Of a DNA stretch of 37,414 nt, positions 3,961 to 5,762 are shown piece by piece. Origin of the DNA: Candidatus Bathyarchaeia archaeon (GTDB lineage: Archaea > Thermoproteota > Bathyarchaeia > Bathyarchaeales > Bathycorpusculaceae); NCBI GenBank assembly GCA_037481775.1, contig JBBFKZ010000006.1:42787-80200 (forward strand). The letters are read 5' to 3'. Under the pieces are notes generated by a model. The model was given only the letters and a program-made list of their open reading frames with translations, searched no databases and was not told where the DNA came from. Position numbers and translations under genes: made by a program. The number at the start of each line of letters is the position of its first letter. The stretch's first letter is position 1.

Positions 3961-4857
3961 ATCCTTAGCGTAGGGTAACCCTGCCCTAGCGCCCATTTTC
4001 ATTATGCATCGTGAAGCAACAAAGTTGCCAAGTGCGCCGCATTCTTGAAGGCTTTTGTCCTTAAGCAATCCGTAGAGGAAGCCGGCGCAGAATGCGTCTC
4101 CCGCTCCCGTGGTGTCTACAACCTTCACGTTAAGCGCCGGTATCAGATGCTTTTCGCGGCCGTCCGTAACGTAGCAGCCGCCGCTTCCAAGTTTGACCGC
4201 CACAATCGTAACGCCCTTTTCAAGCATAAAGTCTGCGCCTTTGCGGTAATCCGCTTCCCCCGTCAGCAGCTTAAGCTCGAGGGCATTGGGCATTAAAACA
4301 TGGGTTCTTCGAATTATGGGTTCCAGAGCTGCGAAGCCTCGTCGGGCATATAATGCGCCTGGATCAAAACTTACCTTGACACGGTCGGGTATTATGTCTA
4401 AGAGTTTCTTCTGAGTTTCAAATGATTTTTCGCCGACGAACGAGGTTAAATGCAGAAAACGCGTTTGCGAAGCATAAGCTACGTTGACATCTTCCAAAGT
4501 TATGGTGTCGTTGACGCCCGAGTTAATATACAATGCGCGCCCGCCTTTTCTATCTACAAAACCAAAGACCGACCCGCTTCTGCCCTGCTCAGCGCGGACG
4601 ATGCCCTCTGTGTTTACGCCTTCCCTGCAGAAGCTTTGGATTAGCAGGTCGCCTTCTCTGTCGCAGCCTACTTTGCCGATGAAGCCAACCCGGCAGCCTA
4701 ACCGTGCAAGGCCAACTGTGGTGTTGGCTGCTGAACCACCGCAGTCCTCTGCGTAGTCCTCAACGAAGCTTTCTTCTTCCTCTCGCGCGATCCTGTTCAC
4801 TTTGAAGAGTTTATCCACATTAAGCGCGCCGAAGCCTACTACATCAAAGCGGCTCAT
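3943..4857 (-). CDS. PfkB/ribokinase-family carbohydrate or nucleoside kinase (EhaT-like)
   Basis: GGSAANT and DTTGAGDAF PfkB signatures. Start overlaps the Ftr-like stop (ATGA). 3' end overlaps purQ by 18 bp. Confidence 0.92.
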
Positions 4858-5762
4858 GAAACCAGCTCTCGCAGGTAAATTTTGTAGTCGCCTAGTTTTC
4901 CGCCATAGTTTCCCGCTGAAACGCGGGCGACGCCGTCAACATTAAGCGCTGCTTGGATTCCTGCTTTCATTGCCCGCTTGACAGCATCCATTGAGACACC
5001 GTTAATTACTATCTCGGGAATGTAACGCACTTCATCGGGCACTAGTGAACGAGGTAATTTCGGTTTAAGTGATGGACAATATGGATGGTTCGTAGTAGGT
5101 CCTATAGCTGGAAAATTGGTTTCTGGCTTTGAGCCAGCGGAACAAACATCAAAAGGAGTGATTACGCCCGCCACTGTGTGTATGGCGTCTAAGGCTTTTC
5201 GGCCCGCCTTCTTCACGGCTTCTTTTGTCCTGCACATAACCCAAAAGTTTGCGCCCATAACGCCGCGAGCATAGCCAAGCCGGCGTTCGATGACGAAGTC
5301 TGGAACCATAAGCGGCACAATGATGACTTCGCGGTCATGTCGCTTTTCAGTCCATTCGTAGCCGTCACCGCAGTGTCCAACATGCTCCATCATGTCCAGT
5401 TTTCCCTCTGCATCTGGCAATGCGTCATAAACTGCAGTGAAAGGCTTAACCAGAATGTCCTGCCGTATTCTGTAGGACAACTCGGTTTCAAACTTCTTCA
5501 ACGATGCAGAGAAGGATGTACGTGAGTTTATTGCACCCCAGAACTGCAGCAGCGCGCCTGCGCGGCCGTCAGGCGTCTCTTTCTCGCTTAGCCATTTTTC
5601 AACTCCGCCCTCTACTCTGCCAATCACCACGGCCGGTGTTGCGGTTGCGTCCTCGGCTGCGCTGCGAACCGTACGCTTATCGTCAGCTGTAATGATTATG
5701 CGGCAAAAAATCCCGGCGAAAGCTTCCGCATAAGTGTCCTCGATAACAGGTTTGCCAGTCAT
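4854..5762 (-). CDS. Formylmethanofuran:H4MPT formyltransferase paralog (Ftr-like, EhaS type)
   Basis: [34 protein letters not shown] and [11 protein letters not shown]tr motifs, but with non-canonical [13 protein letters not shown] and [11 protein letters not shown] segments. Confidence 0.9.

Follow-up and report, generated by a model that had tools for sequence, protein, structure and literature searches.

Introduction

According to Brown 2011 (PMC3261824), two Archaeoglobi, four named Methanobacteriales species and M. kandleri have neither purN nor purT in otherwise complete purine pathways. These archaea are described there as purine-prototrophic, with only the glycinamide ribonucleotide (GAR) formyltransferase lacking among their purine genes. 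PurN (folate-dependent, EC 2.1.2.2) and PurT take the formyl group from N10-formyl-tetrahydrofolate or from formate and ATP, respectively, and produce formylglycinamide ribonucleotide (FGAR). Here we describe Ftr2, a diverged paralogue of formylmethanofuran:tetrahydromethanopterin formyltransferase (Ftr), which is encoded in a 37,414-nucleotide stretch of DNA (the window, meaning the whole stretch analysed) from a Candidatus Bathyarchaeia archaeon (GenBank assembly GCA_037481775.1, contig JBBFKZ010000006.1, positions 42,787 to 80,200). The gene lies in a purine operon, and Ftr2 is a strong, testable candidate for the archaeal purine enzyme missing since 2011.

A second Ftr has been noted in other archaea. 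Chadwick 2022 (bioRxiv version of PMC9012536) reports a divergent, uncharacterised 'Ftr2' in anaerobic methanotrophic archaea of the groups ANME-1 and ANME-2a/2b, in Archaeoglobales, in M. kandleri and in Methanothermobacter, and also notes that no GAR formyltransferase has been identified for Archaeoglobales and Methanobacteriales; the passages that make the two statements do not connect them. Kaster 2011 (PMC3087415), citing Tersteegen and Hedderich 1999, names the second Ftr and the ribokinase-like gene of Methanothermobacter EhaS and EhaT, and describes them as the last, co-transcribed genes of the eha hydrogenase operon. Going by these descriptions in the literature, the pair resembles the window in having a second Ftr followed by a ribokinase-like gene, and the lineages with EhaS or 'Ftr2', similar to the window genome, are without PurN and PurT in the account of Brown 2011 (PMC3261824). 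Unlike the window genes, however, EhaS and EhaT end a hydrogenase operon rather than a purine operon. Our literature search found no paper assigning GAR formylation to an Ftr homologue.

If the assignment proposed here is true, formyl groups bound to methanopterin or methanofuran are a direct source of purine C8, although these coenzymes are usually held to play no part in purine synthesis. In addition, thousands of database entries named 'formylmethanofuran--tetrahydromethanopterin N-formyltransferase' would be misannotated, so that Bathyarchaeia and other metagenome-assembled genomes would seem richer in one-carbon pathway genes than they are. A context would also be gained for the orphan genes EhaS/EhaT and for AF1437, a protein from structural genomics.

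Results and Discussion

Ftr2 in the slot of the third purine step

The operon has the order purF-purD-HADlike-Ftr2-PfkB on the minus strand, where HAD-like denotes a protein of haloacid dehalogenase (HAD) fold, and is convergent with purM-purS-purL-purQ on the plus strand (Table 1). The converging 3' ends of purQ and the PfkB gene overlap by 18 nt. The genes of purD, HAD-like, Ftr2 and PfkB are translationally coupled: the stop of PurD and the start of HAD-like overlap in GTGA (4 nt), the stop of HAD-like and the start of Ftr2 in TAATG (1 nt), and the stop of Ftr2 and the start of PfkB in ATGA (4 nt). As purine steps 1, 2, 4 and 5 are encoded around it, Ftr2 stands in the slot of step 3, the conversion of GAR to FGAR.

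The window genome (1.82 Mb) is 96.7% complete and contains neither a PF00551 match, the mark of PurN, nor PurH; its best match to PurT reaches only 56 bits, inside a 1093-aa frame. The purD gene is the only copy by tblastn, and purF, with no closer paralogue, is single-copy. Two tandem PurP paralogues adjoin PurC (G000:C24:3160-6322). Since PurH is absent and two PurP are present, the second purine formylation therefore uses formate. Ftr2 is thus encoded between a GAR-producing and an FGAR-consuming enzyme in a genome without another candidate for the step in between. It matches the Pfam FTR families only (PF01913, FTR, 152.8 bits; PF02741, FTR_C, 195.6 bits) and has no PF00551 or PurT (ATP-grasp) homology. 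To judge from these matches, Ftr2 as a GAR formyltransferase would be an analogue of PurN and PurT, not a member of either family. Ftr2 shares with PurN and PurT the operon slot, a mutually exclusive distribution and the predicted product FGAR. However, it is unrelated to them in sequence and fold, and its predicted formyl donor is bound to tetrahydromethanopterin (H4MPT) or methanofuran.

The complementary distribution was examined in 201 Bathyarchaeia genomes of at least 80% completeness, which were searched for Ftr2, PF00551, PurT and PurD. The scores of the Ftr2 profile were bimodal: 74 genomes reached 338 bits or more, and the canonical Ftr, here called Ftr1, scored 275 bits or less. PF00551 was matched in 89 genomes, a PurT-like protein (E of 1e-40 or lower, all short of the curated cut-off) in 12 and PurD in 169. 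Among the PurD-positive genomes, 69 carry Ftr2 only, 92 a PurN/PurT-like protein only, two both and six neither, so that exactly one system is present in 161 of 169. Two of the six genomes with neither are assembly artefacts, as Ftr2 is cut by a contig end in G053 and the contig of G193 ends after purD-HAD. The complementary pattern is repeated within single families: f11 comprises two genomes with Ftr2, seven with a PurT-like protein, one with PF00551 and one with neither, and f21 three with Ftr2 and two with a PurN-like protein. In a 401-genome sample of the phylum, the only Ftr2 carriers outside the class are the three genomes of family f48, in which no PF00551 and no PurT were found. The same holds for five genomes with Ftr2 outside the purine operon (G537-G541), which have PurD and Ftr2 and in which PF00551 and PurT were not found.

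The exchange can also be seen in the operon itself. G028 and G034 have the order purF-purD-[PurN-like, ~280 aa]-HAD-PfkB, G124 has purF-purD-PurN-like-HAD followed by the contig end, and G010 has purF-purD-PurN-like. The slot proteins of G010 and G124 score 54-62 bits with PF00551 and 62-77 bits with the NCBIfam PurN model, whose cut-off is 150. In three genomes of family f8 (G002, G010 and G034) the gene in the slot is the sole PF00551 match, and G011 and G031 keep purF-purD-HAD-Ftr2-PfkB. Two unrelated formyltransferases in one operon position are the strongest argument that Ftr2 does the job of PurN.

Conservation of the arrangement was assessed in two sets of loci. In 80 Bathyarchaeia loci from species genomes with Ftr2 72-87% identical, tblastn detected as neighbours purF in 57, purD in 60, HAD-like in 65, PfkB in 68, purQ in 63, purL in 58 and purS in 54, many of the misses being short contigs. 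A second set of 80 contigs came from metagenomes, with subclade C as query; it yielded only relatives 44-50% identical to the query, none close to subclade C. Their Ftr2 is 40-66% identical to that of the window, except for two contigs with 100% identity that belong to the same organism. A HAD-like match was found in 31 of these contigs, most of which also have pur genes, and four more have PfkB or pur genes only. HAD-like and PfkB are frequent, non-obligatory neighbours of Ftr2.

Two further observations concern these operons. The PurD proteins fall into two score classes: most genomes with the module of HAD, formyltransferase and PfkB have a PurD of ~237-272 bits, short of the TIGR00877 cut-off, and genomes with ordinary PurN or PurT have one of 300-513 bits; G031 combines a high-scoring PurD with the module. 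In G010, ~2 kb downstream of its purF-purD-PurN-like operon, there is a Cas1 gene (L087, G010:C1, 2858-3682).

Ftr2 is a paralogue in a separate clade

An earlier sequence-only reading of this DNA had taken Ftr2 for an Ftr paralogue, and the window genome indeed carries two Ftr genes. The canonical Ftr1 (326 aa) is encoded on contig C1 (L001:1030-2010, minus strand) and reads GFATSVIMAPAEA, RIGQCVMTCPTT and PFPGG, so that the canonical motifs cited in that reading are real. Its frame boundaries for Ftr2 were likewise exact. The closest relatives of the Ftr2 protein are labelled Bathyarchaeia, and 121 orthologues are at least 79% identical to it. All databases annotate Ftr2 as Ftr.

The NCBIfam equivalog model of Ftr (TIGR03119, cut-off 292.6 bits) separates the two proteins, as Ftr2 scores 239.8 bits and Ftr1 of the same genome 403.2 bits. 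Six further members of the Ftr2 clade score 155.6-235.7 bits, so that all seven tested fall below the cut-off, whereas all three Ftr1-type proteins exceed it (own Ftr1, G432 Ftr1 with 393.8 bits and P0165 with 324.7 bits). The looser subfamily model NF002554 is passed by Ftr2 with 353 bits against a cut-off of 297. Against solved archaeal Ftr chains, Ftr1 scores 310-320 bits and Ftr2 163-190 bits; against all solved chains the ranges are 247-320 and 100-190 bits. Ftr2 and Ftr1 share 34% identity and only 172 bits by BLASTP, compared with 247 bits by phmmer between the bacterial FhcD chain 6S6Y_D and the same Ftr1, the two methods being different.

For phylogenetic analysis, 706 relatives of Ftr2 were obtained from a scan of 1.84 billion representatives, of which 150 were listed and 54 with 270-345 aa were kept. 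Seven sequences with chimeric- or frameshifted-looking motif columns were left out (P0194, P0209, P0225, P0245, P0251, P0254 and P0261). In quick, unrooted IQ-TREE trees supported by the Shimodaira-Hasegawa-like approximate likelihood ratio test (SH-aLRT), Ftr2 falls in a separate clade, as the sequence-only reading had expected, with an SH-aLRT of 99 on the branch. The branch splits 16 from 33 rows, and 18 from 34 after addition of three sequences from another class. The canonical side holds the own Ftr1 and sequences labelled Methanomicrobium, Planctomycetota and Gemmatimonadaceae, and therefore includes both archaeal Ftr and bacterial FhcD types. Ftr2 is a paralogue in a separate clade that has retained the catalytic Glu.

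A third Ftr type, the P0165 group, occurs in metagenome-assembled genomes labelled Bathyarchaeia and Hodarchaeota and has RIRK for RIGQ and an altered PFPGG region. It was suspected to be EhaS, and this was rejected because it is another Ftr type with Bathyarchaeia and Asgard labels that passes the equivalog cut-off. An Ftr1 match at G148:C7:46183-47073 contains one in-frame TGA.

Residues that set Ftr2 apart and a shared fold

The segments described as altered in the sequence-only reading were located in the Ftr2 translation at residues 41-53, 98-109 and 203-206 (PFDV), and the core described as retained at 210-212 (GSK), 224-230 (TNHPYCP), 250-255 (EIVING) and 282-291 (a 10-residue motif). 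Twelve representatives of the Ftr2 clade were compared with 23 canonical sequences. Arg100 is present in 12/12 of the Ftr2 clade, and the canonical sequences have Gly (15), Ser (7) or Arg (1) at this position. The GG of PFPGG is deleted in 11-12 of the 12 and present in 20-23 of the 23, and the Cys column after GF.TSVI. is deleted in all 12. Cys131 replaces the Phe of FGDG in 11/12 (Phe in 22/23 canonical), and Pro222 replaces the Ala of ASTN in 12/12 (Ala in 21/23). Further residues specific to the clade are Gly221, Pro43, Trp75 and Ile147, the last in place of Trp. Overall, the near-invariant residues of canonical Ftr and FhcD (the G of GF.TS, the Cys column, the F of FGDG, PGG and the A of ASTN) are replaced or deleted in 11-12 of the 12 Ftr2 sequences and kept in 20-23 of the 23 canonical ones. 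The two groups have 42 positions in common, Glu250 and the motifs GSK and GNYGGKLG among them. The differences between Ftr2 and the canonical proteins are family-level and not due to chance.

The changes were thought in the sequence-only reading to be a remodelling of N-terminal segments. The N-terminal changes are real, but PFDV, IGP (220-222) and P249 show that the FTR_C half is altered too. The proposed gain of Arg, Asp and Lys comes down to one arginine shared by the whole clade, Arg100 (12/12), and a partly conserved Arg49 (9/12), and does not extend across the clade for Asp102 (6/12), Lys106 (2/12) and Asp205 (2/12). The structural argument of that reading, which assigned the gained residues to the methanofuran side and saw the pterin side as retained, is in part overstated. 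Within the close Bathyarchaeia orthologues, Arg49, Asp102, Lys106 and Asp205 are conserved in 118-121 of 121. The metagenomic Ftr2 proteins outside the purine context keep RIRQ, CGDG, the PGG deletion and IGPTTN.

The AlphaFold model of Ftr2 has a predicted local distance difference test (pLDDT) score of 94.6. Structural comparison with 1M5S, 1FTR and 1M5H gave template modelling (TM) scores of 0.88-0.89, with 30-39% identity over the structural alignments. In each of the four solved chains it was aligned with, Ftr2 Glu250 falls on the Glu of EIVI, and it is invariant in 37/37 aligned sequences and in 121/121 close orthologues. The catalytic Glu is Glu245 in the numbering of M. kandleri Ftr. 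The matching residue of FhcD, Glu252, is described by Hemmann 2019 as the stabiliser of the tetrahedral oxyanion. Ftr (EC 2.3.1.101; 1FTR/2FHJ/2FHK, 1M5H, 1M5S) and FhcD (6S6Y chain D) thus share with Ftr2 the two-lobe fold, the catalytic Glu, GSK, TN..YCP and the 10-residue motif at 282-291. In contrast, Ftr2 differs from Ftr in Arg100, Cys131, Pro222, IGP and the deleted Cys column and GG, and in being a second copy in a purine operon.

Proposed reaction

Taken together, Ftr2 is probably a GAR formyltransferase that acts on GAR itself, N5-formyl-H4MPT being a somewhat likelier donor than formyl-methanofuran. In our best reading it serves archaea that have H4MPT and methanofuran one-carbon metabolism and are without PurN or PurT. 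A new formyl acceptor such as GAR or its riboside had been suggested from the sequence alone. GAR is well supported by comparative genomics, because of the operon slot, the absence of PurN, PurT and PurH, the complementary distribution and the in-situ replacement by a PurN-like protein, whereas the riboside is weakened by Ftr2 genes that lie beside remnants of HAD and PfkB (see below).

We propose that the Ftr fold, the active site at the dimer interface and the oxyanion-stabilising Glu250 are kept, and that one of the two large coenzyme sites would be rebuilt to hold GAR. The primary glycyl amine of GAR is, in chemical terms, the equivalent of methanofuran's aminomethyl group. The likeliest reaction would then be N5-formyl-H4MPT + GAR -> H4MPT + FGAR, in which Ftr/FhcD may be regarded as running 'backwards' with GAR replacing methanofuran; the alternative would be formyl-methanofuran + GAR -> methanofuran + FGAR. 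The clade-invariant Arg100, together with Arg49 where present, may bind the 5'-phosphate. The product FGAR would pass to PurLQS, encoded on the opposite strand.

Several points weigh against this assignment. Two genomes, G130 and G001, have both systems. Related genomes are non-independent, and the real number of switches is therefore small; in addition, the 'PurN/PurT-like' class is loose, since its PF00551 matches include proteins of 250-300 aa at 54-90 bits. The purine link is not universal: about 9 of the 80 species-genome loci have long flanks and none of the purine, HAD or PfkB genes, and 45 of the 80 metagenome loci have no HAD-like, PfkB or pur neighbour. In G432, from another class of the phylum, Ftr2 is back to back with canonical Ftr1 and adjoins cdhC/cdhD of carbon monoxide dehydrogenase/acetyl-CoA synthase (CODH/ACS), without a PfkB gene, a context compatible with any role linked to H4MPT. 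Glu takes the place of Arg49 in most of the large metagenomic subgroup, so that only Arg100 is universal in the clade. The conserved HAD-like and PfkB partners are unaccounted for by a single enzyme, since PurN works alone elsewhere. Brown 2011 (PMC3261824) refers to the opinion that formyl-H4MPT does not work as a formyl donor in the GAR step. Finally, the acceptor, the donor and the roles of the arginines are what we infer.

Partner proteins and a possible three-step route

The HAD-like protein belongs to a family whose profile matches PDB 1Y8A, the 'hypothetical protein AF1437' of Archaeoglobus fulgidus, with E 1e-55. Its model (pLDDT 95.0) is closest to 1Y8A (TMt 0.92), with phosphoserine phosphatases next, and it has the D-x-E-G-P, YDD, TLKL, STSY, GDSI.D and FNGNEYA motifs in common with AF1437, on which our literature search found no functional paper. 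Motif I is atypical, D-x-E-G-P, in all ten aligned homologues; the nucleophile Asp is kept and motif IV (GDSI.D) is intact. The PfkB kinase has the ribokinase signature DTTGAGD and scores below every curated cut-off, its best solved relatives being YdjH and ribokinases at ~100 bits. Because HAD-like and PfkB accompany either formyltransferase, they probably act on the ribosyl substrate or product and not on the formyl donor.

These partners raise the possibility that HAD-like dephosphorylates GAR, that Ftr2 formylates glycinamide riboside in an H4MPT-dependent reaction and that PfkB re-phosphorylates the product to FGAR, at the cost of one ATP, which would drive a formyl transfer that is close to equilibrium because its donor is weak. 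The gene order HAD-Ftr2-PfkB is the proposed reaction order, in translationally coupled genes; the kinase is ribokinase-like and its catalytic motif is unbroken, and HAD-like retains the nucleophile Asp and motif IV. The presence of the same HAD and PfkB pair beside the PurN-like enzyme of G028 and G034 again suggests that the pair is concerned with the ribosyl substrate and not with the donor, and formyl transfer between H4MPT and furfurylamine is given by Hemmann 2019 as near equilibrium, at +4.4 kJ/mol. However, in G537 (L107, G537:C1:2410000-2424000, ~7746-8911) an intact Ftr2 lies between remnants of the HAD-like gene (the last 42-50 aa, 68-74% identical) and the PfkB gene (the first 43 aa, 72%), and G540 has the same HAD remnant, in a group of genomes (G537-G541) where, as said, neither PF00551 nor PurT was found. 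The G537 locus looks like a transposed slice of the purine operon. In the f48 genomes PfkB is absent beside Ftr2, and a HAD-like neighbour is present in only one of the three. The invariant Arg100 would also suit a phosphorylated substrate. A distant HAD paralogue (27-34% identity) elsewhere in the G537-type genomes keeps the three-step route alive, and on balance we regard it as unlikely. If true, it would be a new coupling of methanopterin C1 chemistry to nucleotide synthesis and would account for the orphan EhaS/EhaT and for AF1437.

Less likely readings: another acceptor or an isoenzyme

Ftr2 might instead act on another molecule, such as an intermediate of methanopterin or methanofuran biosynthesis or salvage, 5-aminoimidazole-4-carboxamide ribonucleotide (AICAR) or another amine, with a purine link that is secondary in Bathyarchaeia. 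This would fit the variable contexts of the 45 metagenome loci, among which no conserved neighbour was found in the 23 whose surroundings were examined, and the position of the G432 gene beside Ftr1 and CODH/ACS. A phosphatase and a ribokinase-like kinase would suit cofactor assembly too, and according to Kaster 2011 (PMC3087415) the eha hydrogenase operon of Methanothermobacter has the second Ftr at its end. Nevertheless, another acceptor leaves unexplained both the near-exclusive distribution against PurN/PurT-like genes and the replacement of Ftr2 by a PurN-like protein in the identical slot, and formylation of AICAR is already covered by the two PurP genes. A different acceptor is thus improbable, and GAR remains the preferred one.

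In G432 (L098, G432:C6:35000-54999, 8980-16147) a distant HAD-like gene overlaps the Ftr2 start by 4 nt. A gene of 420-440 aa lies 5' of Ftr2 in three metagenome loci; PurD was considered for it and rejected, as the protein is class II aldolase-like. These aldolase-like genes are at L136:4792-6078, L173:4275-5534 and L120:2980-4302; in L136 and L173 the gap to the Ftr2 start is ~20 nt.

That Ftr2 is a second, diverged formylmethanofuran:H4MPT isoenzyme for other conditions or a variant coenzyme is very unlikely: its fold, its catalytic Glu, its pass with NF002554 and its database annotation would agree with this, but it fails the equivalog cut-off that Ftr1 passes, it has lost residues that hardly vary across both canonical Ftr and bacterial FhcD (the G of GF, the F of FGDG, PGG and the A of ASTN), it is farther from its own Ftr1 than FhcD 6S6Y_D is (on the BLASTP and phmmer scores above, obtained by different methods), its core is highly conserved among the 121 orthologues, and it is linked to purine genes by its operon and by its phyletic pattern.

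Genes of the window

The features of the two convergent gene groups are listed in Table 1.

Table 1. Coordinates of Ftr2 and the surrounding purine genes in the window.
Feature	Position	Strand	Remarks
purM (aminoimidazole ribonucleotide synthetase), 3' part, cut by window start	1..449	plus	AIRS_C, profile positions 43-154
purS	507..758	plus	Pfam PurS 81.4 bits
purL (formylglycinamidine ribonucleotide synthetase II), consumes product of missing step	755..3136	plus	TIGR01736 705.7
purQ	3106..3960	plus	NF002252 325.7
PfkB-family ribokinase-like kinase, 304 aa	3943..4857	minus	Pfam PfkB 179.4 bits; ribokinase model TIGR02152 176.6, below 299.65
Ftr2, candidate GAR formyltransferase	4854..5762	minus	302 aa; Pfam FTR + FTR_C; diverged Ftr paralogue
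HAD-fold protein, AF1437 family, 360 aa	5762..6844	minus	weak HAD matches in Pfam and NCBIfam
PurD (GAR synthetase), low-scoring type	6841..8265	minus	GARS_N/A/C domains; TIGR00877 263, below 288
PurF (amidophosphoribosyltransferase), first operon gene	8292..9854	minus	TIGR01134 326.9, below 350

The neighbours at 9990-17923 of the window are ordinary and comprise metK, RidA/L-PSP, a DUF4443 regulator-like protein, a GPN-loop ATP-binding protein, HMG-CoA reductase, a beta-CASP/MBL protein and a LigT-like phosphoesterase.

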